A stretch of DNA of 63,556 nucleotides, the filler included, from an uncultured Methanosarcinales archaeon (lineage in GTDB: Archaea > Nanobdellota > Nanobdellia > Woesearchaeales > CAYNLP01): assembly GCA_964398115.1 (NCBI GenBank). It is 3 parts of 3 records of this genome, joined end to end, with 100 filler letters (N's around TTAATTAATTAA, not from the genome) between each part and the next. Parts side by side here need not be neighbours in the genome. Positions count along the whole stretch, not along the records: positions 1 to 26,594 come from CAYNLP010000012.1; 2 more parts are not named here. The stretch is one strand, 5' to 3'. A model generated the notes under the pieces. That model was not told where the DNA came from and made no database searches. It saw only the letters and a list, made by a program, of their open reading frames with translations. Both the position numbers and the translations under genes were made by a program. Each line of letters opens with the position of its first letter. Within the stretch, counting starts at the first letter, position 1. Below are positions 14,168-31,655 of this stretch, in pieces.

Positions 14168-14810
14168 CTACTTTACAACTTGCTTTATCCCTAAAGGTTT
14201 GCGCATCTGTTTCGTCACCAGCCACTTCGCCATAGTGCATTGGAATGGCCACATCTGGCTTGATTTTTTCAACAGCTTCAACTGCTTCTTCAGCAGTCAT
14301 GACATAAGTACCGGACACAGGAATTAAAGCAATATCGCAATCCACTCCCTCCATTTCCTCTATGACATCAGCATCTCCAGTGTGATAGAGTTTGACACCG
14401 TCGAAATCCACAACATAACCAACGTGGCCATCCTCTTTTGGATGGAATGGCTGATCAGGAGCTCTAAACTTGTTAGTATTATACGCCGCTACGGTTTCAA
14501 CACTTAAACCGGCTACGTTAAAACTTTGTCCAGGTTGTACTGACTTCAAATCACCAACGTTTAAATTAGAAACTTTACTAACACTGTTGGTGTTAACCAC
14601 TAACGTAGTGTTGGCTCCACTTACTTTCTCAATATCTTCTGGATTACAATGATCATAATGTTCATGACTCACAAAGACAACATCGGCTTCATCTTCTCTA
14701 TCAACTTTGTAAGGGTCAAAATAAACCGTTTTCCCTGATCCTCGCACTCTAAAGCAATCATGGTTTACACGTTCAATATCTAATCCCATAACATCTACCA
14801 ACATAACCAC
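14157..14810 (-). CDS. MBL-fold metallo-hydrolase (UlaG-like)
   Basis: SHEHYDH, YHTGD, IPMHYG. Confidence 0.88.
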   Translation of the reverse strand: MVMLVDVMGLDIERVNHDCFRVRGSGKTVYFDPYKVDREDEADVVFVSHEHYDHCNPEDIEKVSGANTTLVVNTNSVSKVSNLNVGDLKSVQPGQSFNVAGLSVETVAAYNTNKFRAPDQPFHPKEDGHVGYVVDFDGVKLYHTGDADVIEEMEGVDCDIALIPVSGTYVMTAEEAVEAVEKIKPDVAIPMHYGEVAGDETDAQTFRDKASCKVVIA

Positions 14811-14919
14811 CTCACAGGAACGGAGGAATTATTTAGATTTTAAGAATGTTACGTAAACCGGTTCTCCTCTAATCTCACCAAAACCTTTATATAGATACGT
14901 TTAGATAGACAAACCCTGT

Positions 14920-15462
14920 ATGGCGTCAGTTTTCAGAGGAGCTTTGGATTTTTTCTCAAGGCTCGGAATATACGATGTAGTATTGCCGTTTCTTCTAGTT
15001 TTCACCATCGTATTTGCAATCTTAGAAAAGAGCAAAATTTTCGGAACTATCGAGAGCGATGGCAACGAATACACGAGGAAGAATTTAAACGCGATGGTCG
15101 CGTTCGTAACCGCCTTCCTAGTTATTGGAAGCAAACAACTCGTTAGCGTTATCAATCAAGCCGTGGCAAACGTGATGTTACTACTTGTCTTATCCATAAT
15201 GTTCATGATTTTAGCTGGTAGCTTCCACGGAGATGAAGAATTCAGCCTAAGTGGGGGGTGGAACAAAACATTTATGTGGATAATGTTTGTAGGCGTAGTA
15301 CTAATATTCCTTCACGCTTTAGGTTGGCTGCAAGGACTGTTAGGATACCTCGCAACTTATTGGAACAGCACTACCGTATCAAGTCTTGTACTCATAATAC
15401 TGGTAATAGGGCTAATGTTTTATATAACTAAAACACCAAATGAAGCACAGGAGGAAAGCTGA
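14920..15462 (+). CDS. Membrane protein, paralog 1 of 3
   Basis: LPFLLVFTIVFAILEKSKIFG; about 5 TMs. Confidence 0.75.
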   Translation: MASVFRGALDFFSRLGIYDVVLPFLLVFTIVFAILEKSKIFGTIESDGNEYTRKNLNAMVAFVTAFLVIGSKQLVSVINQAVANVMLLLVLSIMFMILAGSFHGDEEFSLSGGWNKTFMWIMFVGVVLIFLHALGWLQGLLGYLATYWNSTTVSSLVLIILVIGLMFYITKTPNEAQEES

Positions 15463-15464
15463 AA

Positions 15465-16037
15465 ATGGTTGTAAACTTTTATGACATGATGCACTGGTTG
15501 AGAGTTTGGGGAGTCGATGAAATCTTACTTCCTTTCTTACTAGTTTTCACAATAGTATACGCCGTGTTGAAAAAATCAAAGATTTTAGGTGACGATTCTG
15601 AACGTTTCAACAAAGTAATAGCCTTAATAATGGGCTTAGCTGTTGTCATACCACACAGTCTTGGAATGTATGGAAGGCCAAGCGTCGTAGATATTATAAA
15701 TAGAGCGTTGCCACAGGTCAGCCTGGTAGTGGTAGCTATAGTGATGTTCTTACTAATGGTTGGCATATTCGGAAAAGATGTTAGCTTTGCAGGTACAACC
15801 GCTAGTGGATGGGCTGTTTTTCTCTCCTTGATCGCAGTTTTCATAATATTCGGAAACGCGGCTGGATGGTTTGCAATGCCTGCAATTCTCTACTTTTTGA
15901 ACGATCCACAGATTCAATCCTTGGTCATAATCATCCTGGTGTTCGGCTTGGTTATCAAGTTCGTCACGGGAGAAGAAAGTGATGATGAAGGAGGATTCTC
16001 CAAGTTCCTCGATGACTTAGGAGACGTATACGAGTAA
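15465..16037 (+). CDS. Membrane protein, paralog 2 of 3
   Basis: LPFLLVFTIVYAVLKKSKILG; about 5 TMs. Confidence 0.75.
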   Translation: MVVNFYDMMHWLRVWGVDEILLPFLLVFTIVYAVLKKSKILGDDSERFNKVIALIMGLAVVIPHSLGMYGRPSVVDIINRALPQVSLVVVAIVMFLLMVGIFGKDVSFAGTTASGWAVFLSLIAVFIIFGNAAGWFAMPAILYFLNDPQIQSLVIIILVFGLVIKFVTGEESDDEGGFSKFLDDLGDVYE

Positions 16038-16043
16038 CTGAAA

Positions 16044-16652
16044 ATGGCAACCTTGCTTGACGTTGGACTTTTGCAGAACTTTTCAGGTATTTTTACATTC
16101 TTGCTAGTGTGGGTAGTGACATTTGGCGTTCTGGAATACACCAATCCAATGGGTGATGACAAGCAAGGGTTACACGCTTTGATATCTGTCGTGTTATCCT
16201 TTTTCGTCTTATTCTCAGGACAGGCTAGGGCTTTGTTTGAATTCATAGTTCCTTGGGCTACAGTACTCGCCTTAGCAGCGTTCTTCTTAATTTTCACAAT
16301 GGTAGCTTTTGGAAATGACGTGAGTGATGTGCACGAATGGGCAGATGGAGGTTTGAAAACTTGGGTTAGCATTCTTTTTGTTGTAATCTTATTATTCGGG
16401 CTTGGCGGGGTCTTCAGTGGTTCTAATCAGGATCAACAAAACCAGCAATACGTTCCTCCTCAGGATAACACAACTCAGAGTGGTTTAAGTGGTCAACAAG
16501 AAGGTTATCAAGGACAAACTACTCAGCAAGAAAGTGAAGAAGGATTTTCAGACATAATTGCTAGCGTATTTACAAATCCGCAGTTTCTAGGAGCGTTGTT
16601 CTTACTCTTGTTAGCGAGTTTTACTGTTGGTAATTTAAGCAAGACCAATTAG
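16044..16652 (+). CDS. Membrane protein, paralog 3 of 3 (Gln-rich loop)
   Basis: FTFLLVWVVTFGVLEYTNPMG; about 5 TMs. Confidence 0.72.
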   Translation: MATLLDVGLLQNFSGIFTFLLVWVVTFGVLEYTNPMGDDKQGLHALISVVLSFFVLFSGQARALFEFIVPWATVLALAAFFLIFTMVAFGNDVSDVHEWADGGLKTWVSILFVVILLFGLGGVFSGSNQDQQNQQYVPPQDNTTQSGLSGQQEGYQGQTTQQESEEGFSDIIASVFTNPQFLGALFLLLLASFTVGNLSKTN

Positions 16653-17251
16653 TTTTCTTTCTCTTCTTTTAAATCTTCAACCAGTTCTGTTAATTGACTT
16701 ACACTGTTGGCAAATTCAGGAATGATTTTAGAAAAAGCTTTCTCCATAGCTTTAATTTCAGCGCCCACGTTCATGATGTTCTTGTCATATTCTCCTACTT
16801 TTCCGATGACGGCGTCGTGTAGTTTGTCGAATCTTTCTTCCAAGTCGTTGATTTTACTTTCCATATCTTGTATTCGCTGTTCCGTGTCTTTTTTCCACTG
16901 TACGACTTTCCGAATGTTTTCTTCAATCTCTTCCCATTTTTCATCTATAATGCTTTCTACTAACTCTTCTACGCCTTCGTTAGTACTGGTGCTTGGTGGC
17001 CCGCTTGGTTGTGGCGGTCCTTGTGGGGGAGGGCTTTCATCTTGTACGTTTTGCATAATGTCTGGAAAGTCTTCAGTCACTTCTTCCACCTCTTTTGCAG
17101 GTTCCATATCTGCTTGTGACATCGCATCGAAAATCTGCGATGATTTATAACCGTCTTGTTGTAAGGTTTCTACGATTTTATCATCGCTCATCCCCTGTGC
17201 TTTCATCCTTTGAACTTGGTCGGTAGGGGTGTCTTGTGGACGGTCAGGCAT
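16649..17251 (-). CDS. Coiled-coil protein with Pro-rich linker
   Basis: EELVESIIDEKWEE, heptad-rich C-terminal half. Confidence 0.72.
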   Translation of the reverse strand: MPDRPQDTPTDQVQRMKAQGMSDDKIVETLQQDGYKSSQIFDAMSQADMEPAKEVEEVTEDFPDIMQNVQDESPPPQGPPQPSGPPSTSTNEGVEELVESIIDEKWEEIEENIRKVVQWKKDTEQRIQDMESKINDLEERFDKLHDAVIGKVGEYDKNIMNVGAEIKAMEKAFSKIIPEFANSVSQLTELVEDLKEEKEN

Positions 17252-17293
17252 GTCTGGAAAATACGAGTGAGAGTATTTAAACCTTTTGAACCT

Positions 17294-17722
17294 TTATTCT
17301 TCTTCCAAGACTTCTTCTAATTTCTTTCTCAGTTGTTCTCTCGTGATAAACCGTCCTGGATTCCATAAGTCAATGTATTTCTCTACTACTTTGAACTCGT
17401 GTTCTTTAACAGTATTGTCCATTTCTGAAGTTATAGCGCTGAGTTTATCTTTCAAATCTCTAATCATGTGTTTCAAGTCTGTCAAGTCTTCTTCTATCGC
17501 TTTTATATCACTCCGTAAGTCTTTTTCAAATTCTAATAAGTTGTTGTCAGCTAATTGAGACTTATTCCTTAAAGTCGTGTATTGTTCTTCTAACACTCGA
17601 AGCCTGCTCCCAAGTGCAGATATGTTTTGTGAAATATTGGAGTAAGCGTTTTCGTCAGAACTTTTTTCTCTAACGTGTTGTTCAGGTTCTGGTTGGTCCG
17701 GGAACAAGTCAGGATCTGCCAT
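17294..17722 (-). CDS. Coiled-coil protein
   Basis: RLRVLEE...VEKYIDLWNP.RFITRE; RBS AGGTGA. Confidence 0.72.
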   Translation of the reverse strand: MADPDLFPDQPEPEQHVREKSSDENAYSNISQNISALGSRLRVLEEQYTTLRNKSQLADNNLLEFEKDLRSDIKAIEEDLTDLKHMIRDLKDKLSAITSEMDNTVKEHEFKVVEKYIDLWNPGRFITREQLRKKLEEVLEEE

Positions 17723-17833
17723 TGTTCACCTATCTTTATGTTGTATCTTTGACTTATAACTCTTGCTGTTCGGTGGTAATATTTATATACTTTGTTCGAG
17801 AAGAAAGTATTTAAAGTAAGGTGAGGGAGTTAT

Positions 17834-20119
17834 ATGGCACTTTTCAGTAAGGAAACTACAGGTTCTTATGAAGTAATTCGTGAAGGCGGGGATAACATCC
17901 TGAAGATTAACTACGAGGACGAACCTAAAGTTCCAAGTATAGAAGACGACCCTGCAACTATGGCGCGTGTTATCGACTTATTGATTGAAAACCCTGATAC
18001 TACTAAAGTTGTCTTCACACAAAAAAGAGAATATGAGTATGATTACAGCCAAACACAACTTCTTAATGAAATAGCGGATTTGTATAAAAAACTGGTTAGG
18101 AATAAGGAATTATTCCAGTATAGCGAAATTGCAAGTGTAGGTAACCAGCAGCAAGCAGACAAGATTTATAGCGAAATCCAGCAGATAGTGTTTCAAAAGT
18201 TGAAATCTGACCCGGTAGGTTGTTATGTAGAGTTGAAACGTTTAGAAAGGCGTGAAAGGATTGAATTGGATAAAAGCGTGGGTGAAGAACAAGCCCTGCA
18301 CAAAGGCTATCATAGACTCTTACAATACTTGCTGAACGAAATGGAGAACACTAAGTTGATAACAGTAGCTGAGCCATACCTCGCTGGTCATCACGTAGGA
18401 GACAGAGAAGTTTATCGGAAAATCTTCGCTCCAAATATCAAACCAGACTTTATGTTCACCAAGTTGATGTCTCAATTTCCTAAAAGAGCTACCGAACTTG
18501 ACAGCTATAACATAGATGACACCGAGGTCAGCATTTTTGAGTTAGAAGATGACGTTCAGTACTTGTATCACGTGACACCACCAGAGTTTAAACTCACACA
18601 AGAAAAATATGAAATTTTGGACATGGCTAGGAATATAATGGCGGAGCATAAGCCTAGCCGGCAAGAGTTTGTCGATCCCCATCGTATGAGGCAAGTTTTC
18701 AGAAATGTTGGTGAAGACCTACTTGAGGAACTAGGTAATTACAAAGGCGTTGATTTCTCCACGGAAGAGGTTGAAGAGTTATGTGATATCTTGATCAGGT
18801 ACACTGTAGGGTTTGGCTTGGTGGAAGTTTTGTTGTCAGATCAAAAAATTCAGGATATCACTGTAAACAGTCCTACTGGTAAGATACCAATGTTTGTTGT
18901 TCACCAAGATTATGGAGAATGTAAAACAAACATTATCCCTAGTGTGAGTGACGCTGAGAGTTGGGCGACAAAGCTACGGATGATTAGTGGTCGTCCTTTA
19001 GATGAAGCTAACCCTATACTTGATACAGGTATTGAAATTCCTAACGTGGCTAAAGCTCGTGTGGGAGTGATAACGGAGCCTTTGAATCCTCAAGGACAGG
19101 CTTATGCTTTCAGAAGACATAGGGATCATCCTTGGACCCTCCCCTTGTTTATTAGGAATAAAATGGTTTCCCCCATGGCCGCGGGTCTCTTAAGTTTCTT
19201 GGTAGACGGCAATCGAACCATGCTAATTGCGGGTACTCGTAGTGCTGGAAAGACAAGCTTACTTGGTAGTTTGTTGGTGGAGATTATGAGGAAGTACAGG
19301 ATTATCACGATTGAGGATACTATGGAGCTTCCTACGAATAGTTTGAGAAAATTGGGTTATAACATTCAACCTATGAAAGTCGCTGGTGCTTTGAGTACGG
19401 ATACTAGTGAGGTTAGTGCAAGCCAGGGTATAAGGACGACTTTGCGTATGGGAGATAGTGCTTTGATTGTAGGCGAAGTTAGAAGTGAAGAGGCTCAGGC
19501 TTTGTATGAAGCTATGCGTGTTGGCGCTCAAGCAAACGTTGTTGCGGGTACTATCCACGGTGAAAGTCCTTACGGAGTTTTTGACCGTGTTGTTAATGAC
19601 TTAGGTGTTCCACGGACGAGTTTTAAAGCGACTGACATCATCATAGTGGCTAATCCGATTAAGAGCCCTGATGGTTTGCATAGTTGGAGGCGTGTCACGC
19701 GTATTACAGAGGTTAGGAAGGATTGGGATGAGGACCCGAGTGATGAGAATGGTTTTGTGGATTTGATGAAGTATAATCCTGAAACGGATCAGTTGGAACC
19801 GACTGATGCTTTGTTGAATGGTGATAGCGACGTTTTGAAGGACATCGCTGCTAACGTGCGGGAGTGGGCTGGTGATTGGGATGCTGTTTTGGAGAATATT
19901 GATTTAAGGAGTAGGATTAAGGAAAGGTTGGTTGAAGTGGCTGATGAATATAATGATGGTGACATGTTGGAGGCTGAGTTTGTAATAAATGCTAATGATA
20001 AATTTCATAAGATTAGTGATAGGGTTAAGGAGAAGACTGGTGAGTTGGATAGTGACCGTATTTTCTTTGAGTGGAATGAGTGGTTGAAGCGTCAAGTGAG
20101 GAAGCGAAATGCTGATTAA
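17834..20119 (+). CDS. Type II/IV secretion (VirB11/TadA/FlaI-like) ATPase with long N-terminal domain
   Basis: Walker A GTRSAGKTS, Asp box TIEDTMEL, Walker B LIVGEVR, GTIHG. Confidence 0.9.
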   Translation: MALFSKETTGSYEVIREGGDNILKINYEDEPKVPSIEDDPATMARVIDLLIENPDTTKVVFTQKREYEYDYSQTQLLNEIADLYKKLVRNKELFQYSEIASVGNQQQADKIYSEIQQIVFQKLKSDPVGCYVELKRLERRERIELDKSVGEEQALHKGYHRLLQYLLNEMENTKLITVAEPYLAGHHVGDREVYRKIFAPNIKPDFMFTKLMSQFPKRATELDSYNIDDTEVSIFELEDDVQYLYHVTPPEFKLTQEKYEILDMARNIMAEHKPSRQEFVDPHRMRQVFRNVGEDLLEELGNYKGVDFSTEEVEELCDILIRYTVGFGLVEVLLSDQKIQDITVNSPTGKIPMFVVHQDYGECKTNIIPSVSDAESWATKLRMISGRPLDEANPILDTGIEIPNVAKARVGVITEPLNPQGQAYAFRRHRDHPWTLPLFIRNKMVSPMAAGLLSFLVDGNRTMLIAGTRSAGKTSLLGSLLVEIMRKYRIITIEDTMELPTNSLRKLGYNIQPMKVAGALSTDTSEVSASQGIRTTLRMGDSALIVGEVRSEEAQALYEAMRVGAQANVVAGTIHGESPYGVFDRVVNDLGVPRTSFKATDIIIVANPIKSPDGLHSWRRVTRITEVRKDWDEDPSDENGFVDLMKYNPETDQLEPTDALLNGDSDVLKDIAANVREWAGDWDAVLENIDLRSRIKERLVEVADEYNDGDMLEAEFVINANDKFHKISDRVKEKTGELDSDRIFFEWNEWLKRQVRKRNAD

Positions 20120-20134
20120 AAGAGGTGGGATTTT

Positions 20135-22366
20135 TTGTCGGAGGATATTGAAGATTTCAAGTCTAAGTATTTGAAACGTTTAAATCAAGAACTTGGTGAA
20201 AGTCCTGAAGACATTTCTGAGGTTACAACTCAACAGTATCGTGAGTTCAGGCAGGAGTACATGCCTAAGCCTTTGAGTTGGTATGAGAAAGTTTGTCAAA
20301 TTTCTGGTAGTATCTTACAGGTTAGTCCTGATGAAGAAGATGCGGAGGAGATGAAGGAAGCGATTGACATCACTCATTTGAATATTACGCCTACGGATGC
20401 GATGAGTTTTGCTATTTTAGGTCCGTTATTGTTTATAGTGGTGGCTTCACTTTTTGGTTATATACTTCCGCCTTTGCTTACGCCGGAGCAGGCTAGTGGA
20501 AGTATTTTCATGGTTTTGTTTGCAATGATTTCTGGGATGGTAATGATTTATCCGTTGCAGAAGATGCCTCAGTTTTTGAGTAATAGTTGGCGTATGAAGG
20601 CTAGTAATCAAATGGTGTTGTGCGTTTTTTACGTCGTTACTTTTATGAGGCATACGAGTAATTTGGAGTTAGCTATTGATTTTGCTGCAAAGCATTTGGA
20701 TCCGCCTTTGAGTTTGGATTTAAAGAAGATAATTTGGGATATTGAAACAGGTAAGCATGATAGTTTGAAGGAGAGCTTGGACAGTTATTTGGAGAATTGG
20801 AGGGATTGGAATAAAGAGTTTATTGAAAGCATGCATTTGATTGAGTCTAGCTTGTATGAAACGAGTGAGAATCGTAGGATCGACACGTTGGATAAAGCGT
20901 TGGATATCATGTTGCAGGAGACTTATGAGAAGATGTTGCATTACGCTCATAATTTGAAGAGTCCTTTGCAGGCTTTGCACATGCTTGGTATTGTTTTGCC
21001 TATACTGGGATTGGTTATATTGCCTTTGATTGTTAGCTTTATGGGAGGGGTTCACTGGTATCATATTATGATTTTGTATAACGTGGCGTTGCCTATTGGA
21101 GTTTTTTACATGGGGAAGAATATTTTGAGTAAGCGCCCTACTGGTTATGGAGAGACTCAACTCACCGGTGTGGATGAGCAAGAGTATAAAAAGGTTAGTT
21201 TTAACTTTTTAGGGAGTGAAGTAAGTTTTAGTCCGGCTTGGTTTGCTATTTTGATTTTTTCGACATTATTGTTGATTGGAAGTTTTCCACTTGTCATGCA
21301 TAGTATGAATCCTGGTTTTGATTACGTCTTTACAAGTAGTGGAGTCTCTACTATAAGTGATTATACAAGTGAAGACGCGGTTTTTTACTTCTTAGGATAT
21401 AGGCCTATGATTCAAGATGGTGAAACCACAGATGTTTTCATTGGCCCTTTCGGCTTAGGAGCTACTCTCTTGAGCTTGTTAATACCGTTGGCTTTTGGAT
21501 TGGGAATTGGCTTGTATTATAAGTTGAAGACTAAAGATTTGATAGAAATACGTGAGAAGGCTAAGGAATTGGAGGAGGAATTTGCGGGGGCTTTGTTCCA
21601 ACTTGGTAATCGTTTGGCTGATGGTATTCCTGCGGAGATTGCTTTTGAAAAAGTGGCGAATGTTATGCAGGAAACCACGTCTGGTAAGTTTTTTGAACTG
21701 GTTAGTGTGAATATTCGAAAGTTGGGGATGGGTTTGAAAAAAGCTATTTTCGATCCTGACAAGGGTGCTTTGGCGTATTATCCTAGTGATTTGATTGAGA
21801 GTAGTATGAAAGTTTTGGTAGAGGCGGTGAATAAAGGGCCGAGGGTGGCTAGTCAGGCTTTGATGAATGTTTCTGAATATATCAAGCAGATGCATCGTGT
21901 TGATGAAAGACTTCGTGACTTGATGGCGGATGTTATTAGTGATATGCAAAGCCAGATTAGTTTTTTGACTCCGGCTATTGCTGGTATAGTAGTTGGGATT
22001 ACGAGTATGATCACTAAAATCTTGGGTAGCTTGGGTGAGAATATTAGTCAGTTGCAGACTGAAACTGCTCAAAGTGCTGGTGGCACGGCTGGTTTTGGTG
22101 GGCAGTTGTTGAACTTGTTCGGTACAGGAATGCCTACTTATTGGTTCCAGATCATTGTGGGTTTGTATGTGGTACAGGTTGTTTACATCTTGACGGTGTT
22201 GGTGAATGGGATTAAGAATGGTCAGGATAAGGTTATGGAGAAGAGTTTGCTTGGTAAGTATTTGACGAGGACTACTTTGACTTATTGCCTCATTGCAGGA
22301 GTTGTTATGACTTTGTTCAACGTCATCGCGGGTACTATTGTGCCGACGGCTGGTGTTGGGGGTTAA
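20135..22366 (+). CDS. Fused TadB/TadC (GspF/FlaJ-like) membrane platform protein
   Basis: 743 aa, two GspF-like cytoplasmic domains (LEEEFAGALFQLGNRL.DG.P.E), many TMs; follows the ATPase. Confidence 0.8.
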   Translation: MSEDIEDFKSKYLKRLNQELGESPEDISEVTTQQYREFRQEYMPKPLSWYEKVCQISGSILQVSPDEEDAEEMKEAIDITHLNITPTDAMSFAILGPLLFIVVASLFGYILPPLLTPEQASGSIFMVLFAMISGMVMIYPLQKMPQFLSNSWRMKASNQMVLCVFYVVTFMRHTSNLELAIDFAAKHLDPPLSLDLKKIIWDIETGKHDSLKESLDSYLENWRDWNKEFIESMHLIESSLYETSENRRIDTLDKALDIMLQETYEKMLHYAHNLKSPLQALHMLGIVLPILGLVILPLIVSFMGGVHWYHIMILYNVALPIGVFYMGKNILSKRPTGYGETQLTGVDEQEYKKVSFNFLGSEVSFSPAWFAILIFSTLLLIGSFPLVMHSMNPGFDYVFTSSGVSTISDYTSEDAVFYFLGYRPMIQDGETTDVFIGPFGLGATLLSLLIPLAFGLGIGLYYKLKTKDLIEIREKAKELEEEFAGALFQLGNRLADGIPAEIAFEKVANVMQETTSGKFFELVSVNIRKLGMGLKKAIFDPDKGALAYYPSDLIESSMKVLVEAVNKGPRVASQALMNVSEYIKQMHRVDERLRDLMADVISDMQSQISFLTPAIAGIVVGITSMITKILGSLGENISQLQTETAQSAGGTAGFGGQLLNLFGTGMPTYWFQIIVGLYVVQVVYILTVLVNGIKNGQDKVMEKSLLGKYLTRTTLTYCLIAGVVMTLFNVIAGTIVPTAGVGG

Positions 22367-23655
22367 GTTCTATGGGTGTAGTGTTGTAATGACTTTCGGA
22401 CTTCGTCGCTTTCTCTTATTTTTTTGAATCCTCTATTTCTGAGTTGTCGTATTCTTTCTCTTGTAACTCCCATTATGCTTCCGATTTGTTCGAGGGTTAG
22501 TTCTTCTTGTCCGTCTAGTCCGTAGTAGAGTTCCATTATTTGCCTTTCTCTGTCGCTCAATAGGGAGAGTGCTTTTTGGATTTGTTCTCTTCTGTCTCTT
22601 TCTTCTGCTTTTTCGTGCACGGTTGGTTCTTCTAACGCTAGTGTTTCGCTGACTTCGGTGTCTCCGTCTTCTTTGTATCTTGGACTGTCCAAGCTTATTT
22701 CTCCAAATGCGATGCGACTGAAGTCTTTGTAGATGTCTACGCTTATATTCGCGCCTGTTTCTTCTATCGCTTCTCTTATTTGTTTATCTGTTGGTCTTCC
22801 ACTCATACGGCTGTTTAAGTATTTTCTTACTGCTTTACCTCCGTTCCAAACGTTCTGTGGTATGTTCACTTGTTTGCTTGTTCGTGCTAGGGTGGTGTGT
22901 ATGTTTTGCCTGATCCACCAGACTGCGTAGCTGATGAATTTCACTCCTCTGTCAGGGTTGAATTTCTTTGCTGCTTCTACGAGTCCTTTGTTGCCGAGGC
23001 TGATGAGTTCTTCGTAGTTTAATCCTTCTCCTCTGTATTTCTTGACGTAACTCGCTACAAATTTCAGGTTTGCCGTGACGAGTTTTTCTAGTGCTTTTTC
23101 GTCGTCTTCGTTTTGGATTCTTCTGCCCAGTCTTTGTTCTTCTTCTCTACTTAAGGGTTCGCTTTCTGTGATTGAGCTGAAGTAGGTTTCTACTGGATCT
23201 TCGTTGTATTCAGTATTAGCTATGAATTCTGGTCTTCTTTCTCTTTCTACTTGTTCTACTTCTTTTTCTAACTCGCTTTCTTCCGCCGTTTCTCGTCTTT
23301 CTACTAGGTGGTGAATGTCCGAACTGCTTACGTATAAGTCTCTTGCACCGCCGTTGCTTTTTTCTTTTACTAGTCTTCTTCCGTCTATGCTTGCTTTCCA
23401 GATTTGTGATAGTTCTTTTTCTGCAAATTTTGCGAACAGTACTGCGGGGGTATAACTATTTTGGGCTTTTTCTTCTGGTATTTGTCCTTGTCTGTGGAGA
23501 TGGTTTATGACCAGGCCGCCGAAGAATCCTTGATTGGTTACTTTGTACGGGTCGTTTTTAATACTTTGTAGTGTTTCTTCGTCTAGTCCTTTTTGTTGTA
23601 GTTCTTTTTCTGTATAGGTACTTGCTGGATCTAGGTCATCGATTATTTCTTCCAT
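22363..23655 (-). CDS. Bacterial-type sigma70-family (RpoD/RpoS-like) factor with ~150-aa N-terminal extension
   Basis: Region 1.2 VETYF...PLSREEEQRL; region 2 LVTANLKFV...GNKGLVEAAKKFNPDRGVKFISYAVWWIRQ; region 3 ISLDSP; region 4 LSDRERQIMELYYGL...TLEQIG...GVTRERIRQ. Confidence 0.93.
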   Translation of the reverse strand: MEEIIDDLDPASTYTEKELQQKGLDEETLQSIKNDPYKVTNQGFFGGLVINHLHRQGQIPEEKAQNSYTPAVLFAKFAEKELSQIWKASIDGRRLVKEKSNGGARDLYVSSSDIHHLVERRETAEESELEKEVEQVERERRPEFIANTEYNEDPVETYFSSITESEPLSREEEQRLGRRIQNEDDEKALEKLVTANLKFVASYVKKYRGEGLNYEELISLGNKGLVEAAKKFNPDRGVKFISYAVWWIRQNIHTTLARTSKQVNIPQNVWNGGKAVRKYLNSRMSGRPTDKQIREAIEETGANISVDIYKDFSRIAFGEISLDSPRYKEDGDTEVSETLALEEPTVHEKAEERDRREQIQKALSLLSDRERQIMELYYGLDGQEELTLEQIGSIMGVTRERIRQLRNRGFKKIRESDEVRKSLQHYTHRT

Positions 23656-23659
23656 TTTT

Positions 23660-25603
23660 TTAGATGTTCCCTCGGTAGTGTTGTAATGCGTTTATAAAGT
23701 CGCCGTAGTGGAATTTCATCCCGCCGTCTAACATGGTGTTTATATTTATACCATGGTTGTCTGAATAGTCTACTATTTCTATTGCTTGTTCAGTTGATAA
23801 TCCTAACCTGTCTTTCATGTCTGGTAGGGTGTAGTGCCTTGTTCTGAAATGCTTCCAGTTTTCTTCTGTTTGAGATATTCGTCTACCATCGAAATTATCT
23901 GAGAGTATGAAGTTTGTTACTTCTAAACTGCATGTTCCTTCGATGAAATAACATGGTCTTTTTGGAGTGTGTAGGTTTCTAACAAAGGGTTTGTATGAGT
24001 TGTTTTGTTTTGAAAGTACGTTTGCTACTTGTTTGGTTTTTCTAAAGAGGGTTTCATCTTCTATTTCGGGATGTTGTCCTAATGCGTGATGGAGACTTGG
24101 CATTCCAGTTGTTTGTTCTTGTACTCTTTGGAATTCGTGGCCGGTTACTTTGTCGTTTTCGTCTGATTCTAGCATTCCTGTTCTTATTAAGTAATTTAGT
24201 GTTCCTCTTTTTTTCCCGGTTTTACTTGCGAGGTCTCCTGATGTGTATTTCACGTTGGGGAATAAGGGCATTTTTTCTTGCGTGTTGGCTTCTTTCTTTT
24301 CTTTGATTGCTTGCCAGATTTTGTTGGTTTCTTGTTCTAATTCGCTTGGTGTTGGGTTTTCTAGTCGGTGTTGTGCTATTGCTCTTGCGGCCATGTTTAA
24401 GACTTGCATTTCGTAGTGGCTTTTTCTAAAACCTGACATGTGTTGTAGGCTAGGATGATGTGGGTTGATGATTATCGTGTCTTCGTCATGGTTGAAAGTG
24501 CTGTTTTGTTCTAGGTTTTCGTCGTATCTTATTTCGGTTTGCATGTGTACTTCATCTATTGGACTTCCTCGTAGTTTCTTCTGTGCTTGTTTTGGGACGT
24601 CGCTTTTCTGACTTTGGAATTTTTGTGTTTTCCTCACTTTCTTCCGGGTCTTGGCGTATTTTCTTACTCTTTGCATGCTACTTCGTAGTTCTGCTCTGAA
24701 TTCTTGCACTCCGGGGTGGTCGGGTTGGAATTGGCTTCTGTCGAATGCGATGGCTTCTTCTAAGTCGTCAGCATGTAATATGCCTATAATTCTTGCCCGG
24801 TCGGTTTTTGGTACGTCTTCTAACATTTTTTTGGGATCCCCGACTCTTCTGCCGTGTACGTATACGTGGATTCCTCTCATGTCTGCTGGGCTGTTAGCGT
24901 AGTAGAGGCTTCCGTGAACGTGTCCCATTTCGTTTCCGGTTCGGTCGAATTCGAATTCGGTGGCTTTTTCTATACTTTTGCTTTGTACTTTTTCTCCGTT
25001 TACGTAGACTTCGAAGTCAGGTAGTATGGGGAGTTCCCATCTAATCCTTCTTCTTAGTTCTTTGAGTTTGAATCCTGTGTCAGGTCCGAACCTTAGGCGG
25101 GTCATTTCTATTTGTGTACCGCTTTCTTCACTTGTGGGTTGGGTTTGTATTTCTATTTCTTTCCCTGTTCGTAGCATGTCTTCGTTGAATTCTTCTTCTA
25201 CTATGCTTTCTAAGCCGTCTTTTCTTGTGGTGAGTTTGTAGGCGTCGCTTAATGCTTTGATTAGGATGGTTCCTATTCCTCGGTCTCCCAGCTTTCTTCT
25301 GTTTAGCTCGGGTGTGTATTTTTCTTCTAGTTTTGGACTGTCTCCTAGTTTGTAGAAAGCGTTTTCTAGTTCGGTTGGTGTCATGCCGAGGCCGTTGTCT
25401 TCTACTACTAAGAGGTCGTTTTCTTCATTGTATTGTAGGTGTACTTGTGTGGCGTCGGCGTCGTAAGAATTGGCTATGAGTTCGATTATACTGGTTTCTG
25501 TATCTTGCTTGGTGAGGTTTGCGAGCATTTCGGGGAGGTTTTTCCCTGGTGCTCTTCTCACAACTTGTGTTTCTTCGGTTTCTTGTGTGGTTCCCCCAAC
25601 CAT
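23660..25603 (-). CDS. GHKL (MORC-like, HATPase_c_3) ATPase with S5-like middle domain and C-terminal putative winged-helix repeats
   Basis: ELIANSYDADA (N box), VEDNGLGM (G1), GDRGIG (G2), SGTQIEM; IIINPHHP. Confidence 0.85.
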   Translation of the reverse strand: MVGGTTQETEETQVVRRAPGKNLPEMLANLTKQDTETSIIELIANSYDADATQVHLQYNEENDLLVVEDNGLGMTPTELENAFYKLGDSPKLEEKYTPELNRRKLGDRGIGTILIKALSDAYKLTTRKDGLESIVEEEFNEDMLRTGKEIEIQTQPTSEESGTQIEMTRLRFGPDTGFKLKELRRRIRWELPILPDFEVYVNGEKVQSKSIEKATEFEFDRTGNEMGHVHGSLYYANSPADMRGIHVYVHGRRVGDPKKMLEDVPKTDRARIIGILHADDLEEAIAFDRSQFQPDHPGVQEFRAELRSSMQRVRKYAKTRKKVRKTQKFQSQKSDVPKQAQKKLRGSPIDEVHMQTEIRYDENLEQNSTFNHDEDTIIINPHHPSLQHMSGFRKSHYEMQVLNMAARAIAQHRLENPTPSELEQETNKIWQAIKEKKEANTQEKMPLFPNVKYTSGDLASKTGKKRGTLNYLIRTGMLESDENDKVTGHEFQRVQEQTTGMPSLHHALGQHPEIEDETLFRKTKQVANVLSKQNNSYKPFVRNLHTPKRPCYFIEGTCSLEVTNFILSDNFDGRRISQTEENWKHFRTRHYTLPDMKDRLGLSTEQAIEIVDYSDNHGININTMLDGGMKFHYGDFINALQHYRGNI

Positions 25604-25628
25604 CGTTTTTAGGTCAAGAATTTGCTGT

Positions 25629-25636
25629 TATTTAAA
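25629..25636 (-). promoter_or_regulatory. Archaeal TATA box for the GHKL-sigma operon
   Basis: TTTAAATA 25 nt upstream of the ATG at 25603, typical of near-leaderless archaeal transcripts. Confidence 0.55.
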
Positions 25637-25723
25637 TCCTGTGTTTTGTTTTCATTCTAGGAAAGTAACAAGTTAGGTTTTTTGGATAGTTTTTTATATA
25701 AGGTTTTGCAGATGTTTGTTTTA

Positions 25724-26521
25724 ATGGTTGATGCGAAGCAGTATTTGAAAACTTTCCGTAGGGTTTTACCTCGGCGTATTCGTAAGTTGAGAAAGTTGGC
25801 TAGGGAGAAGCGAAAGTTGGATGACAAGCTTCGTGCTGGTGCTTATAATGATTCTGTTATTGAGCGTTTGAAGGAAATTATTGGTGAGGATAAAAAGTTG
25901 TTAGTTTTTGGTAAGAGTGCTGAGAAGCGTCATCAGACTACTTTGCGTCATAGTGCTTGGAAGATATTGGAGAGCATTCGTAAGTTTAGGCAGTATTGTG
26001 ATAACAAAACTTTAGGTGAGGATATCGTTCATATTGAGGATGAAAACTTGCGTCGGAAGACTAGGAAAGTTACTGATAGTATGAAGGCGTGGTTGCAAGA
26101 GGTTTACAACTTTTGTGAAGAATTAGATGAAGTTTTTAAGGAAGAGGTTGATCACTTGGATAATGGTAGGTTGAAGGAGTATCTCGAGGCGAGTAACAAG
26201 GAGAAGAAGATCTTGTCAGATCCTAATTTCAAGTCTGACGTGGATAATATGAAAGGAGCGGTTAAGCGTGGTGTGAAGTTGTTGGGTGAGATGGAGGATA
26301 ACCATCCTTATGTTGCGAGTTTGGTTTTAATTCTGGCTACTGTTCATGTTTTGAGTTATGGCTTATTGATTATTGGCAGTGATATTGCAATGCCTGCCTA
26401 TCTAAGTAGCTTTTTAGGTTTGGTTGCTTCTAAAATTCCTGTAGAGTTTGACATGGAAGCGGAGGATTTTTTGGAGCAATTAACTAGTGTAGCGGTTGAT
26501 GTTCAAGAACAAATGGTATGA
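25724..26521 (+). CDS. Helical/coiled-coil protein with C-terminal hydrophobic hairpin
   Basis: Likely start MVDAKQY about 23 nt after TTTATATA; basic N-terminus; two adjacent hydrophobic helices near the C-terminus. Confidence 0.65.
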   Translation: MVDAKQYLKTFRRVLPRRIRKLRKLAREKRKLDDKLRAGAYNDSVIERLKEIIGEDKKLLVFGKSAEKRHQTTLRHSAWKILESIRKFRQYCDNKTLGEDIVHIEDENLRRKTRKVTDSMKAWLQEVYNFCEELDEVFKEEVDHLDNGRLKEYLEASNKEKKILSDPNFKSDVDNMKGAVKRGVKLLGEMEDNHPYVASLVLILATVHVLSYGLLIIGSDIAMPAYLSSFLGLVASKIPVEFDMEAEDFLEQLTSVAVDVQEQMV

Positions 26522-26522
26522 G

Positions 26523-26594
26523 TGGGCTTGCCCGGATTTGAACCGGGGACACCTGCGTCTTCAGCGCAGTGCTCTCCCGCTGAGCTACAAGCCC
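26523..26594 (-). tRNA. tRNA-Phe(GAA)
   Basis: Reverse strand GGGCTTG...CTGCG-CT-GAA-GA-CGCAG...GGTTCAAATCC...CAAGCCC-A; contig ends at its 5' base. Confidence 0.95.
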
Positions 26595-27390: not shown

Positions 27391-28340
27391 ATGGTTCAAC
27401 AAGTGGCGCAGAAAGCGGTTGTAGATAGTAATCCGAATCCTCTTAACGGGTCTGAAGGATTGGAAGAAGAGTCTATGGGTTCTTCAATGGAACTTGATGG
27501 GGGGAATGTTCCTTTAGAAGCTATTGTTGGACGTTTGTCTAGTTATTTTTCGCCAGACGATTATAGGTTTTCAAACGTGTCTTATGGGGTTAAAGTTACG
27601 TCGAGGAATAGTAGAAACTGGCGTACTACTGTTAATAAATACTTTGATGAAAAAGTTAGAGAAGGTAGGAGTCGAGCTATCAAAGAAAAGGAGCTATATG
27701 GTAGACTTGGCAAGAAATTGTTAACCGAGATTTTGAAGTAGAAGAGACTCCTCAATGGGTTGCCGAAGCCGTTTATCAACCAGGAAATGAACACGGCACT
27801 TTGGAAGTAAGAGTTAATCCTGAAGCTGCACAACACGTAGGGGTGGATATGAATGAGTTAGAATCTTCCCTCTCGGAACCAGGCACGCCGCAAGATTTTC
27901 CTGGAGGGGTTGAAGGAGCTCGCAACCAAGTTTACCGGATGTTCCGTGAAATGATTGGAAGGAACAGTTCATGCACTACTACCAAGAAAGAAATCGCTCT
28001 CTACATGGGGTGGGATATGGATATTGAAGAACTTGACGAAGCTATCAGAGAACACTTGGGAGGTCCAAACGTAAATTATGAAGCTATGGATAGATCACTC
28101 GGAATAGATGATATGAATGATGAAGAAAGACAAAGATTGTATGAAACAGGTATTTTAGCAAGTTACATAAGAAGAGGAGGTTCTTCTTCGCAGGCGGACC
28201 CTCCTGAAAGAGTTGCAAAAGCAGCAAGTTACCTCCTCTCTGGTCATACAGTGCCTGAAACTGTAATGAAATTTAGAGGAGATGAGGACATCTTTATGGA
28301 GCATTTGAGAAAGACAAGGGATGAATATACAGGAGCTTAA
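27391..28340 (+). CDS. Hypothetical protein, apparently one gene split by a -1 frameshift near 27704 (track ORFs 27391-27741 and 27801-28340)
   Basis: The downstream frame is open and protein-like from 27705 (TWQEIVNRDFEVEETPQWVAEAVYQPGNEHGTLEVRV), overlapping the first ORF. Confidence 0.5.
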
Positions 28341-28344
28341 AAAT

Positions 28345-29568
28345 ATGAGTAATAAAGGAGCGGAATTGGAAGTACTCGTTGCAAGAGAAGATGAAGATGG
28401 TTTAGAACCAGTTCATGAAGCAGATCAAATACTGTATCAAGGTCATAGACCTATCCAAAAAGAAGATGGTGAATACATAGGTGGTACTGCTCCAGAAGTT
28501 GCAAAGTCCATGATGGAAGTAGTGACTAGTCCAAACGAATCAGTTATGGATACAGGGAGTGAACTAGTAAGGATGCTCAAAAAGGAAGAACGGAAAGCAA
28601 GAAAGGCAGATTTGACATTAATGCCGATTGACATGCCATTTGGGGATTTCACGCCGGAAATGAGAGAAAATCCTAGGTATAATGCAAAGGCAGAAGTGCT
28701 TGGTCCTGAAAAGTTCAAGAATATAGCAGGAAAAGTACAAGGACAACACACTCATGTAGAAGTTGATGAAGAGAACTTGGTAACTTTACTTAATGAAGGT
28801 AAAGCTTTGGATCCGGTAGCCATTGCCCTTACAGCTAGCAGTCCAAGAGATGGATTTGATAATTGGAGGGTGCACGCTTATAGAGAGGTGTTATATGAAG
28901 ACTCGGATGTTGATTTGAAACTTAGATCTTTCAAAGAAGACAGGGAAGAATATGAAGCCGAGTTAGAACGTAACTTTGAATACTTCATTAATAGAGTTGA
29001 AGAATTAGGACAGGTTAGTGAAGGGATGACTCCACATAACGTGTTGCGTGGGCCTGTTAGTTACAATCAAAAATATGGGACTTTAGAGTTTAGAACAGCA
29101 GGTGCCAATCCTGACATCGGATTGATGGTCGGATACTTAGCAATGATGGATGGTGCTTTGAAAAGATCTATGAATGGCGATAGCGTGATTAAAAGAGTGC
29201 CTGGTGAAGATAGGGAAGAAAAGTTTGAGGCTTTGCGAGAGTTGAGTGAGAGGGCTAAGAGAGATGGTTTGAAGGATCCTGCTGTCAGGTCTTACACTGC
29301 TGACGTTTTACAATATGCGCGTGAAGGTTTGGATGATAGAGAAGAAGTATTGTTAGACCCGGTTGAAGGGGCGGTTAGTTCAGGTATTAATACTTCAGAT
29401 AGGATTAGAAGGTTAGCTAGTGACAGAGGTTTGGATTTGAATGATGCCAGTTCTGGGCCTCAGCTTATGAAGGCTGTGTATGATGAAATTTATCAGCCGA
29501 GTCTAGTAAGGACGAGCGAGGTTTTGAATGGTTTAAGGTATGATCAAGCAACTGACAAAGTAGCTTAA
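28345..29568 (+). CDS. Glutamate-cysteine ligase family 2 (GCS2/YbdK-like carboxylate-amine ligase)
   Basis: GAELE, EVAKSMMEVVTSP, GQHTHVEV, ALTASSP, YGTLEFR. Confidence 0.8.
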   Translation: MSNKGAELEVLVAREDEDGLEPVHEADQILYQGHRPIQKEDGEYIGGTAPEVAKSMMEVVTSPNESVMDTGSELVRMLKKEERKARKADLTLMPIDMPFGDFTPEMRENPRYNAKAEVLGPEKFKNIAGKVQGQHTHVEVDEENLVTLLNEGKALDPVAIALTASSPRDGFDNWRVHAYREVLYEDSDVDLKLRSFKEDREEYEAELERNFEYFINRVEELGQVSEGMTPHNVLRGPVSYNQKYGTLEFRTAGANPDIGLMVGYLAMMDGALKRSMNGDSVIKRVPGEDREEKFEALRELSERAKRDGLKDPAVRSYTADVLQYAREGLDDREEVLLDPVEGAVSSGINTSDRIRRLASDRGLDLNDASSGPQLMKAVYDEIYQPSLVRTSEVLNGLRYDQATDKVA

Positions 29569-29635
29569 TCACTATTCTATAGTAGTTACAATCCGAATTT
29601 ATAAAAGGGGTGAGGTATTAGTAAAAAGATAAAAA

Positions 29636-31021
29636 ATGGCAGTTACAGACCTAGAAATAGAAGAACAAAGCCTAAGAAACTCACAGCAAGAACGCTATTC
29701 TACAGGCATCCAAAACTTAAACGTGACCCGTATATGGGACTATTTCTTACACGGAAACGTACAAGCAGCCATGGAAAGAAGAGAAGGATTAGACGCTCTA
29801 GATCAAAGAGCCATAATAACAGCGGGCTCGGATGAAAACGTAGTAGTTAGAAGACAAGACTGGGATAGAGACCTAGTTAAATACTTGAACTCAATCAAAC
29901 CCAACGGGCTAGGAGCCCAACCCCAAAACATATTTGCGGTAGGAAGAGAAAAATACCAATCTTTAGCTGAAATACTCTTAGAAAACGATGAAATAAGCAA
30001 AGAAATAATAACACAGAAAAACGGAGAGGGGGCTATACAAACCTATCACAACTCCAATATTGCTAAGAAACTAGCTGATAAATGGGATGTGAAATACTTA
30101 GGATCCAATGAAGAAGTAGCAGACCAGTTCGGAAACAAAGTTAGATTCCGAAGACTCACACATGAAATCTTTCAAAACATGCACGACTACAGCTCTGTCA
30201 AGAAATCAGAAGGCAAAGAACAAATAATTGATAAACTAAAAAAATTCACCGAAGAATTCGGATCAATATTCATCAGAGGAACAAAAGGAGCAGGAGGAAG
30301 ATCCACCTACTCATACGAAGGAGAGAAAGATTTAGATGAACTAGTAGAAGCAATGCTCACCGACACAGGGAGCGAAGAATTCTTAATAGAACCACACCTG
30401 AATTCAGGATATTCTAGGATAGTCCATAACCCTTCAATATTGTACAGGATAGTAGATGATGAAGCACACTTGATAAGTCCTGTGTCTGGACAAATTTTGA
30501 TAGATAACGGTCACATAGGTAACTTTTACCCAAGCGGACTAGAGGACCGTAAGGAAGAAGGTATAAAGAACATGACGAGAACGATGATAGAAGAAGAAAG
30601 AAAAAGAGGTTACGTAGGCGAGGGTAGTATAGATTTTAGCATACTGAACCAAGGATGGATAGTACCCACGGAAAATAACACTAGGGTTACAGGCGCTTCC
30701 CCAATAGCTCATTTGAATGAAGAGTTAACGGACAGGTTCAATCAGCAACCTTACATCTTAATGTTCAACTTCGACGCCGGTTACCAAGACTTTACAGGCT
30801 TAGCAGATGAGTTAGAAGAACCAGATAGTTTACTTTTTACAGGTCAAGAAAAAGAAGGAGTGCTCCCTATAATGGCAAGATATGACGGTCACGTTATAAC
30901 TTCTGTTTTTTCACCAAATCCTGAACGCACCACAGAACTGGCTAGGGAAACTACTAAACGACTCGGAATTGAAGAATTAGATTCAGTCCTTGACGATCAG
31001 ATTCCTTGGTATAATGAGTAA
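29636..31021 (+). CDS. ATP-grasp ligase (pre-ATP-grasp/PGM1-like peptide ligase type)
   Basis: GNKVRFRRL, GAGGRSTY, GQILIDNGHIGNFYP, GYVGEGSIDF, ENNTRVTGASP. Confidence 0.75.
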   Translation: MAVTDLEIEEQSLRNSQQERYSTGIQNLNVTRIWDYFLHGNVQAAMERREGLDALDQRAIITAGSDENVVVRRQDWDRDLVKYLNSIKPNGLGAQPQNIFAVGREKYQSLAEILLENDEISKEIITQKNGEGAIQTYHNSNIAKKLADKWDVKYLGSNEEVADQFGNKVRFRRLTHEIFQNMHDYSSVKKSEGKEQIIDKLKKFTEEFGSIFIRGTKGAGGRSTYSYEGEKDLDELVEAMLTDTGSEEFLIEPHLNSGYSRIVHNPSILYRIVDDEAHLISPVSGQILIDNGHIGNFYPSGLEDRKEEGIKNMTRTMIEEERKRGYVGEGSIDFSILNQGWIVPTENNTRVTGASPIAHLNEELTDRFNQQPYILMFNFDAGYQDFTGLADELEEPDSLLFTGQEKEGVLPIMARYDGHVITSVFSPNPERTTELARETTKRLGIEELDSVLDDQIPWYNE

Positions 31022-31064
31022 ATCCAAAAACCTTAAATAATGGATGAATTTAGAGGGGTTACCC

Positions 31065-31655
31065 ATGCAAACTTACATTCAGACCACGGAGTACACCACT
31101 GCTGCATGTTCTTTAATGCTCGCAATCAATCACTTAGATGAAAGCTTCGAAGTTTGCAAAGATAACGAGTTCAAAATTTGGATGAGCAGCGCTAACCTAC
31201 CCACCCGAGCTTGTAGCATTTACGGACTAGCATGCTTTGCGAAAAAACAAGGTTTAGATCCAAAAATTGTATTAGGTGAAAAAGAGTATGAATACCCAGA
31301 TTACCGCTTCAAAGGATATACTAAGAAAGAAATTGACGAAGCAAAGTTTTCAAGTAAAATTTATCACAAAAGAGCCAGAGATATGGATATACCTATTGAA
31401 GAAAGAGAGTTCGACTTAGATGAAGTAAAGGATAATTTGAGGGATGGACATACAATATTGTTGAGAGTGAATGCCGGGGCTTTGAGGGATAGTGGAAGCG
31501 TTTCCAACTATGTTGCCGTTTATAGTTACAAAAACAAGTTCAGCATGGTTGACCCTGTCCAAGGAAAAATTAGTGTTGGAGAAGACAAGTTGCAGGAAGC
31601 TTTTGAAACTTTGGTTTCTAAGAAGAAAAGAGATCACAGAATGATTATCTTCTAG
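31065..31655 (+). CDS. Peptidase C39-like (DUF3335-type) protein, catalytic residues apparently altered
   Basis: YIQTTEYTTAACSLMLA, EFKIW...ACSIYGLA, NYVAVY...MVDP. Confidence 0.7.
   Translation: MQTYIQTTEYTTAACSLMLAINHLDESFEVCKDNEFKIWMSSANLPTRACSIYGLACFAKKQGLDPKIVLGEKEYEYPDYRFKGYTKKEIDEAKFSSKIYHKRARDMDIPIEEREFDLDEVKDNLRDGHTILLRVNAGALRDSGSVSNYVAVYSYKNKFSMVDPVQGKISVGEDKLQEAFETLVSKKKRDHRMIIF

Follow-up and report, generated by a model that had tools for sequence, protein, structure and literature searches.

Bacterial-type sigma70 factors in archaea of the DPANN group were reportedly first described in 2013. The protein family concerned (fam00359) was later found to be prevalent in Woesearchaeota, with mis-binning excluded and, in the passages that treat it, its function given as unknown (Castelle et al., 2021; PMC8204110). 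The presence of a sigma70 in such an archaeon is nothing new in itself. Two other described systems resemble the locus reported here: the Mza anti-phage system, in which the sigma factor gene mzaA accompanies mzaBCDE (PMC9523054, in its passages on the gene set), and the MORC ATPases, defined in the corresponding part of Iyer et al. (2008; PMC2292703) by four GHKL motifs and an S5 domain containing a GhXhhpXXRhl motif. The DNA analysed, referred to as the window, is a stretch of 63,556 nt made of three joined contigs from a Woesearchaeales genome (G000, 91% complete; GCA_964398115.1). On contig C12 a gene for a MORC-like GHKL ATPase is followed, 4 nt after its stop codon, by the ATG of a gene encoding a conserved N-terminal domain fused to a sigma70 cassette. 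The pair is a real, old and undescribed module with exchangeable bacterial initiation-factor cargo. With a probability of roughly 0.45 we read it as a nuclease-free two-gene module aimed at bacterial RNA polymerase (RNAP)-promoter complexes, and hence at a bacterial host. Two questions are addressed: the role of sigma70 in archaea without a bacterial polymerase, and the identity of Woesearchaeota hosts.

Comparison with described systems

Like fam00359, the window sigma is a native bacterial-type sigma70 of a Woesearchaeote. It differs in three respects: a conserved domain is fused to it, a MORC-like ATPase gene adjoins it, and the cassette has been swapped between sigma classes; the fam00359 passages of PMC8204110 mention no partner. 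Within the order, matches to the window sigma were found in 17 of 41 and in 100 of 301 genomes, G000 included (seven of the 100 are flagged as unpublished), at no more than 40% identity across the full sigma part. The sigmas of Woesearchaeales are polyphyletic, in that some cluster with Lentisphaerae (support 96), several fall in a clade of Fibrobacteres-Chlorobi-Bacteroidetes (FCB) type, and one groups with a Planctomycete RpoD (99), a placement that rests on the unpublished genome G113. The sigma of L005 clusters with one from Paceibacterota; it was treated as probable bin contamination and omitted from the conservation counts. Tandem arrays of sigma70 paralogues were seen in two Woesearchaeales genomes, with four copies in L074 (G041:C3) and three in L075 (G193:C6).

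Mza likewise places a sigma70-type protein beside a GHKL ATPase, and MzaA was the top NCBIfam match of the window sigma. The scores, however, fell far below the profile cut-offs (167 against 800 bits for MzaA, 28.5 against 850 for MzaB; NF041931/NF041932), the GHKL is of a different subfamily, and no Z1, nuclease or AIPR partner was found. Z1, which we take to be an Mza component, had no match in G000 (control positive in 1 of 14); AIPR also had none, in a search that is weak because its controls were positive in 0 of 14. The pair was ruled out as Mza on the two scores and the missing Z1. The top NCBIfam match of the ATPase was a GHKL-bearing restriction enzyme (BbrUII/HgiDII, 97.5 against 550 bits), an assignment also ruled out, as the match covers residues 39–219 only and leaves the nuclease part uncovered.

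In two actinobacterial single-chain fusions, L168:10825–13401 (Microbacterium dauci) and L259:10819–13494, a GHKL and a full sigma70 form one unit, as in the pair. Unlike the pair, they are one polypeptide with an MzaB-like ATPase in a restriction-modification-like island of a cell with the cognate polymerase, and they share no common descent with it. The genes adjoining these fusions are methylase-like and GHKL-HEPN-like. Together with the top NCBIfam matches and the restriction-modification neighbourhoods in which MORC and paraMORC genes mostly lie according to the passages of PMC2292703 that describe them, the methylase-like neighbours would fit a reduced Mza-like or restriction-like defence, with the sigma as sensor or decoy and a nuclease encoded elsewhere. 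This is unlikely in our judgement. The matches are confined to generic domains and Z1 is lacking; we know of no reason for archaeal viruses to target sigma; and the 59 neighbouring proteins, most without any Pfam match, included no identified SFII helicase, nuclease or DNA methylase, in keeping with the earlier note on this DNA, which had reported no adjacent nuclease or methylase. Phage-encoded sigma factors, the subject of PMC9429907, also occur in an entity without a bacterial core polymerase, but the genes of a phage are expressed within its host cell, whereas an archaeal protein would need delivery.

Recurrence of the pair and exchange of its cargo

The ATPase family was represented by 40 GHKLs from 37 loci, 35 of which were readable, two having no downstream sequence. 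At 10 of the 35 the GHKL stop codon is abutted by a partner gene whose product starts with a common domain of 125 aa, with gaps of -23 to +4 nt (the window, L061, L101, L102, L103, L105, L106, L180, L181 and L263; L103 rests on the unpublished G337). A sigma is present in seven of these partners; two others run into a contig end (L103, L180), and one has an unrelated 892-aa body (L263). A different sigma lies close by at three further loci, directly downstream in L190, divergent in L262 and two genes upstream in L114. The pair, for which the earlier note had suggested looking in other genomes, thus recurs in other Woesearchaeales loci. The idea of a new two-gene system held in part: no description of the pair or of the ATPase family was located in literature that left out most subscription journals and the supplements of PMC8204110, but sigma70 is known, bacterial MORC-sigma precedents exist, and 22 of the 35 loci have no sigma in the available flank, some flanks being short, so the pairing is not obligate. 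Partnered GHKLs are about 26–35% identical to the window GHKL and are scattered over a supported clade of 24 rows plus one outside it. Being related, the partnered loci do not count as independent draws; the six state changes fit an old link with repeated loss. Near the L102 pair and an integrase lies a split reverse transcriptase (L102:4031–5516), whose neighbours resemble those of a diversity-generating retroelement.

The 125-aa domain that precedes the sigma cassette, which the earlier note did not mention, serves, on the strength of its profile, to recognise partner genes as orthologues. Among 3821 sequences the profile matched only genes immediately behind a GHKL. The domain occurs in 6 of 401 genomes, four of them with it behind a GHKL; in the same sample minus G000 the figure is 3 of 5, and 3 of 15 GHKL genomes have such a partner. 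It is weakly similar to the GHKL repeats (41% and 63%).

Regions r1_2, r2 and r4 of Sigma70 matched the fusion above the Pfam cut-off, and the sigma model matched sigma factors with structural Z scores of 14–17. The earlier description of a complete sigma70 (regions 1.2, 2, 3 and 4) therefore stands for 1.2, 2 and 4, but region 3 is divergent, with no Pfam match, helices present in the model and 8 of 44 positions matching the donor-clade consensus. The best database matches were Gemmatimonadota sigmas at 43–50% identity (best 120 of 7611), and near-identical bacterial homologues, named earlier as a possible refutation, were not seen among them. The window sigma was sister to one Gemmatimonadota clade, with support of 97 in the Shimodaira-Hasegawa-like approximate likelihood ratio test (SH-aLRT; 108 rows) and of 100/98 with 49 rows, where the bootstrap was not fully settled. 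Identity and tree thus place the origin of the cassette in the Gemmatimonadota. Compared with the short RpoD/SigA-family sigmas of the clade in which it nests, the window sigma has a longer branch, the divergent region 3 and the added N-terminal domain. Two other sigma-like genes were noted in G000, an ECF-like (extracytoplasmic function-like) one at C32:3913–4776 and a group-2-like one at C31:6835–7707, the latter broken into open reading frames (ORFs) of 177 and 112 aa.

Behind the same N-terminal domain, seven proteins carry a FliA/WhiG-type sigma (L061, L102, L106, P0314, P0315, P0317 and L275), L105 carries an RpoD-type one, L101 a short one of ambiguous type and the window the Gemmatimonadota type. 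A single clade for the partner sigmas was rejected by the approximately unbiased (AU) test (p 0.00018; 9 rows, L101 being too short to include), and the sigma cassette was therefore swapped, its cargo being drawn, by sequence classification, from at least three sigma classes. A different cargo was found in P0283, a family member from Nanoarchaeota records that is fused to CarD in its entirety (Pfam E values 1e-24 and 2e-11) and scores 146 bits against a CarD-family protein of solved structure. To our knowledge CarD acts only on bacterial polymerase. This GHKL-helix-turn-helix-CarD fusion also has a probable second, degenerate RNAP-interaction domain. CarD was rejected as a general Woesearchaeales feature, and two weaker candidates, a PcrA-Tudor domain in P0232 (19.2 bits against a cut-off of 23.9) and a sigma4-like GHKL tail in L070 (22.4 against 25.7), were not counted as evidence.

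Often-captured sigmas might also have landed by chance behind unrelated GHKLs and then decayed. Sigma70 is present in a third of the genomes, its branches are long, most GHKLs are unpartnered and broken copies exist (at G000:C31, and as GHKLs split in two in L061 and L105), all of which would suit such a neutral or transient juxtaposition. We nevertheless rate it as quite improbable, because the same N-terminal domain stands at 10 loci beside GHKLs as far apart from that of the window as given above, the link outlived cassette replacement, and the frames are open after full amelioration.

Nativeness and assembly support

The G+C content at third codon positions (GC3) of the two genes was 0.35 and 0.38, close to the mean of 0.35 for the genome and far from the 0.89 of a Gemmatimonadota homologue, and their codon-usage scores lay at the 98th and 90th percentile among 594 genes. 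The local base composition reported by the earlier note was thus borne out. Contigs of run X1 covered 30 of the 30 bins of positions 17000–26590 with zero joints, and one piece (23451–23995) bridges the GHKL and sigma genes; those of run X2 covered 23 of the 30 bins. Both runs belong to a single study, and the sample sequenced in X1 may itself be the source. The sigma/platform junction was spanned by none among the pieces listed. The stretch from 13313 to 26594 contains zero N, consistent with its earlier description as gap-free, and no joint of the kind that would mark a chimera appears in the contigs of the two runs. The TATA box TTTAAATA begins 33 nt ahead of the GHKL ATG, the peak position genome-wide: -33, -32 and -31 gave 25, 21 and 24 matches among 643 starts, with 0.21 expected per position, and 168 matches lay between -34 and -28. 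The archaeal TATA box noted earlier ahead of the pair falls on this peak, and the two genes are probably co-transcribed from it. The tfb gene placed in the window by the same note is present there only as a fragment at the end of contig C13; the complete gene lies on C3, off the pair contig.

These data support a native, ameliorated pair that is neither chimera nor contaminant. An assembly chimera or bacterial contamination could appeal to the low depth (1.4–7.9), the single study and the closeness of a contig end, but is barely credible in view of the host codon usage, the unbroken strand skew, the archaeal TATA box, the Woesearchaeota relatives of the GHKL and the recurrence of the pair across independent assemblies.

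Fold and family of the ATPase

The GHKL protein matched HATPase_c_3 (Pfam, E 1.5e-15), and its ATPase module conserves E41, N45, D69-G71-G73, G106, G109, T163, R252 and R289; of the ungapped rows in the family alignment, 89 of 97 have E41 and all 97 have N45. The best structural matches of the ATPase model were MORC3 (Z 19.6, root-mean-square deviation (rmsd) 4.4, 279 aligned) and MORC2 (Z 19.0). Like these proteins and the MORC/paraMORC ATPases as characterised in PMC2292703, it has the GHKL and S5 module with four intact GHKL motifs. The signature is matched in part, however: of the strict GhXhhpXXRhl motif G244 and R252 are present, but the polar position is occupied by V and the hydrophobic one after it by R. 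It differs further in its zincin-like middle domain, its tail of helix-turn-helix (HTH) repeats and its neighbourhood, where no helicase, nuclease or methylase was identified. The match of the middle domain to Wss1 is borderline (Z 8.0, rmsd 4.2, 107 aligned), and no HExxH motif occurs in its sequence (aa 326–441). Tail repeats 444–500 and 584–647 align at 92.8%, relatives give weak HTH_17 matches and a mad1 HTH matched at E 0.003. No nuclease motif was recognised in the tail (aa 444–647), and for the paraMORC1-5 extensions (ExxxH, restriction endonuclease (REase), TIR, HxH) no nuclease or TIR match was obtained there with generic Pfam profiles, family profiles not being among them. Searches of PDB sequences with the partner-domain and GHKL-tail alignments returned weak HTH-like matches only, which do not establish the fold, and ESM Atlas gave no usable match to either. 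Motifs and model thus identify a nuclease-free, MORC-like family with C-terminal HTH repeats, whose members would act as ATPases and DNA clamps.

The family is centred on Woesearchaeales. One search returned 11 full-length relatives, the named ones Woesearchaeota; 329 representatives were found at E 1e-30 or better (150 listed); and of 401 genomes searched at E 1e-25, 19 matched, comprising 16 family members and three weak matches to other GHKLs. One family locus, L113, is labelled Methanosarcinales. Neither pair gene was found in G001 (same genus, 83% complete) or G002 (same family). Tandem GHKL paralogue pairs in L061, L070 and L261 form two sister clades, and the L061 pair is followed by the sigma and a 635-aa multi-HTH gene.

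Polymerase docking and promoter recognition

The polymerase of G000 is archaeal only (A'/A''), and no bacterial rpoC or alpha C-terminal domain (alpha-CTD) was found in this 91% complete genome. The clamp of its Rpo1' has I, L and H at the positions of E. coli R275, E295 and A302, and acidic residues at those of R281, R293 and R297, three charges being reversed. The three beta' residues given for sigma binding in a section of bioRxiv 2020.09.07.285775 are absent from its clamp helices. By this comparison the archaeon's own polymerase lacks sigma-docking residues and appears unable to dock sigma.

In the window sigma the melting residues F419, F427, Y430, W433, W434 and Q437 are kept, Y425 is V as in the donor, and K414 and T440 are altered. 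In region 4.2, all 8 tested positions of -35 recognition are kept. The region-2 residue list was taken from the cited part of bioRxiv 2020.09.07.285775. D403, Q406, E407 and N409 of region 2.2 are E, S, L and N in the window and E, C, I and N in the donor clade, whose departures those of the window mirror. The donor consensus is matched at 16 of 18 positions in region 2.3 and 21 of 28 in 4.2. Mean conservation in 50 Woesearchaeales sigmas (three unpublished genomes included) and 37 bacterial ones was 0.74 and 0.81 for region-2 core binding, 0.63 and 0.79 for melting, and 0.77 and 0.97 for the -35 positions. The conservation evidence on the polymerase target, as far as sequence goes, is mixed.

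Links to bacteria and viruses

A search of a viral collection gave 12 matches, one of full length, in a 331-kb IMG/VR record (G423/L185) whose GHKL nests among Woesearchaeales members. The ribosome-binding motif GGAG precedes 84 of its 216 starts, no TATA peak and no TBP were found, and the record has its own FliA-type sigma 40 kb from the GHKL. No capsid or terminase Pfam match was obtained (87 of 443 ORFs of G423), and its viral status rests on the IMG/VR class. The gene behind this GHKL (1042 aa, L185:9901–13029) is 34% identical to that behind the GHKL of G084. This second partner type of about 1050 aa, found in a Woesearchaeote at L065:5691–8864, showed metallophosphoesterase-like motifs by eye and no Pfam, NCBIfam or PADLOC match. 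In bacteria, HTH_17-GHKL genes at L122:7749–10338 and L123:7761–10680 are followed by sigma4/alpha-CTD/TrmB-type HTH proteins. G000 also encodes an SLT transglycosylase domain (C9:13693–13923, L357), in a protein with a hydrophobic N-terminal stretch that sits among pilin-like genes.

Proposed mode of action

A MORC-type ATP-driven DNA clamp would be coupled to a bacterial initiation factor that can be exchanged, the contact being made by way of the conserved domain of the partner. The sigma would load on the core enzyme of a bacterial host or bind -10/-35 elements, and the ATPase would clamp DNA at that site, so that transcription is silenced or redirected. The target is most likely the bacterial RNAP-promoter complex, and the module would then act in a bacterial host cell. 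This is suggested by the recurrence of the partner, the swapped sigma classes, the CarD fusion, the kept promoter residues and the region-2 core-binding positions, which are conserved almost as well as in bacteria, and equally by the archaeal clamp without docking residues, the copy in the 331-kb record, the bacterial fusions, the SLT domain and the episymbiosis on bacteria proposed in PMC8204110.

Several results weigh against a bacterial target. Of the 35 loci, 22 are without a sigma; the partner of L263 has no sigma and the partner-sigma of L275 no GHKL; and several partners are eroded, L102 being without a region-4 Pfam match and L101 short. The CarD fusion is a single protein cluster, CarD exceeding the cut-off in 0 of 251 genomes, and of the 42 long family members searched for such cargo 41 had none above cut-off. 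Reading of the sequences revealed no signal peptide at the start of either protein, no translocation system was identified, and the literature examined shows no bacterial host of any Woesearchaeote: PMC8204110 suggests bacterial episymbiosis as speculation only, and PMC6349945, in its relevant passages, merely speculates about bacterial partners. Finally, the window matches the donor consensus at only 11 of 21 positions in region 2.2 and 4 of 14 in the C-terminal tail, and conservation of region-4 core contacts is 0.45 in Woesearchaeales against 0.72 in bacteria, a pattern that fits DNA binding better than core binding.

The sigma domains may instead be polymerase-independent DNA readers that aim the MORC clamp at DNA within the archaeon, region 4 reading double-stranded -35-like and region 2 single-stranded -10-like sites, for example in order to compact or silence incoming DNA of bacterial type, or to regulate. 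The DNA-contact residues are the best-conserved part of the window sigma, the partner domain and GHKL tail are HTH-like, one partner lacks a sigma, the promoter is archaeal with no evident export signal, and the bacterial relatives L122 and L123 make similar pairings. Such action inside the archaeon is the main rival reading, and a less likely one. Free sigma70 binds duplex promoters poorly, and the whole sigma architecture, the conservation of D403 and E407 across the group (0.90 and 0.76), the CarD fusion and the copy in a bacterial-type viral record would be left unexplained. The earlier note had offered both a sensor for the ATPase clamp and an effector on bacterial polymerase; these remain the two best readings, and the evidence leans towards the effector.

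More tentatively, Woesearchaeales may live on bacteria as symbionts or parasites and deliver to them a polymorphic transcription effector, namely a MORC clamp whose sigma or CarD was taken from the lineage that is the host at present. The sigma donor would then name the host, here a Gemmatimonadota bacterium. If so, an archaeon would have a protein system that targets bacterial RNA polymerase, and genome sequences could be used to predict the hosts of DPANN archaea that are uncultured. Because the module supplies a defined partner, a swap history and concrete donors, both questions posed above become testable. A further gain is a MORC family that lacks a nuclease and is linked to transcription factors, which makes it a counterpart in prokaryotes of the silencing by eukaryotic MORC proteins.

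Locus organisation and neighbouring genes

Both ORFs were recovered with the 4-nt spacing that the earlier note had described (Table 1).

Table 1. Features of the gene pair, in window positions.
Feature	Position	Strand	Remarks and basis
TATA box	25629..25636	-	33 nt 5' of GHKL ATG; putative promoter
MORC-like GHKL ATPase gene	23660..25603	-	647 aa; model with predicted local distance difference test (pLDDT) 94, family alignment
GHKL + S5 ATPase module, aa 1-326	24626..25603	-	structural matches, conserved motifs
Middle domain, aa 326-441, zincin/Wss1-like fold	24281..24628	-	borderline structural match
C-terminal HTH repeat region, aa 444-647, predicted DNA-binding	23663..24274	-	repeat alignment, weak HTH matches
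N-terminal domain + sigma70 fusion gene	22363..23655	-	430 aa; model pLDDT 85.6
Conserved partner N-terminal domain, aa 1-125, two HTH-like units	23281..23655	-	profile search
Sigma70 cassette, aa 150-427, regions 1.2-4.2, Gemmatimonadota origin	22375..23208	-	identity, tree
14-nt stretch, two identical copies	22378..22391 and 23675..23688	.	each lies shortly before a stop codon (sigma, GHKL)

On one side the pair is flanked by an archaeal type IV pilus ATPase gene and a membrane-protein gene, which are convergent with it and overlap by 4 nt. A conserved tie to these pilus genes was rejected, as they are convergent and recur nearby only at L282. On the other side lies a divergent orphan of 279 aa (25682–26521), with zero Pfam or NCBIfam matches, followed by tRNA-Phe at the contig end. 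Identity over 14 nt at gene ends was reached by 1 of 20000 random gene-end pairs. The repeat was rejected as a general hallmark of the pair, since at most 6 nt are shared at the nine other pair loci. Recombination between the two copies would remove the sigma gene almost cleanly; alternatively, the copies may mark a cassette swap. On contig C13 of the window, a GCS2-like ligase, an ATP-grasp-like protein and a C39-like peptidase are encoded consecutively (28321–31655) and may form a peptide-ligation cluster.

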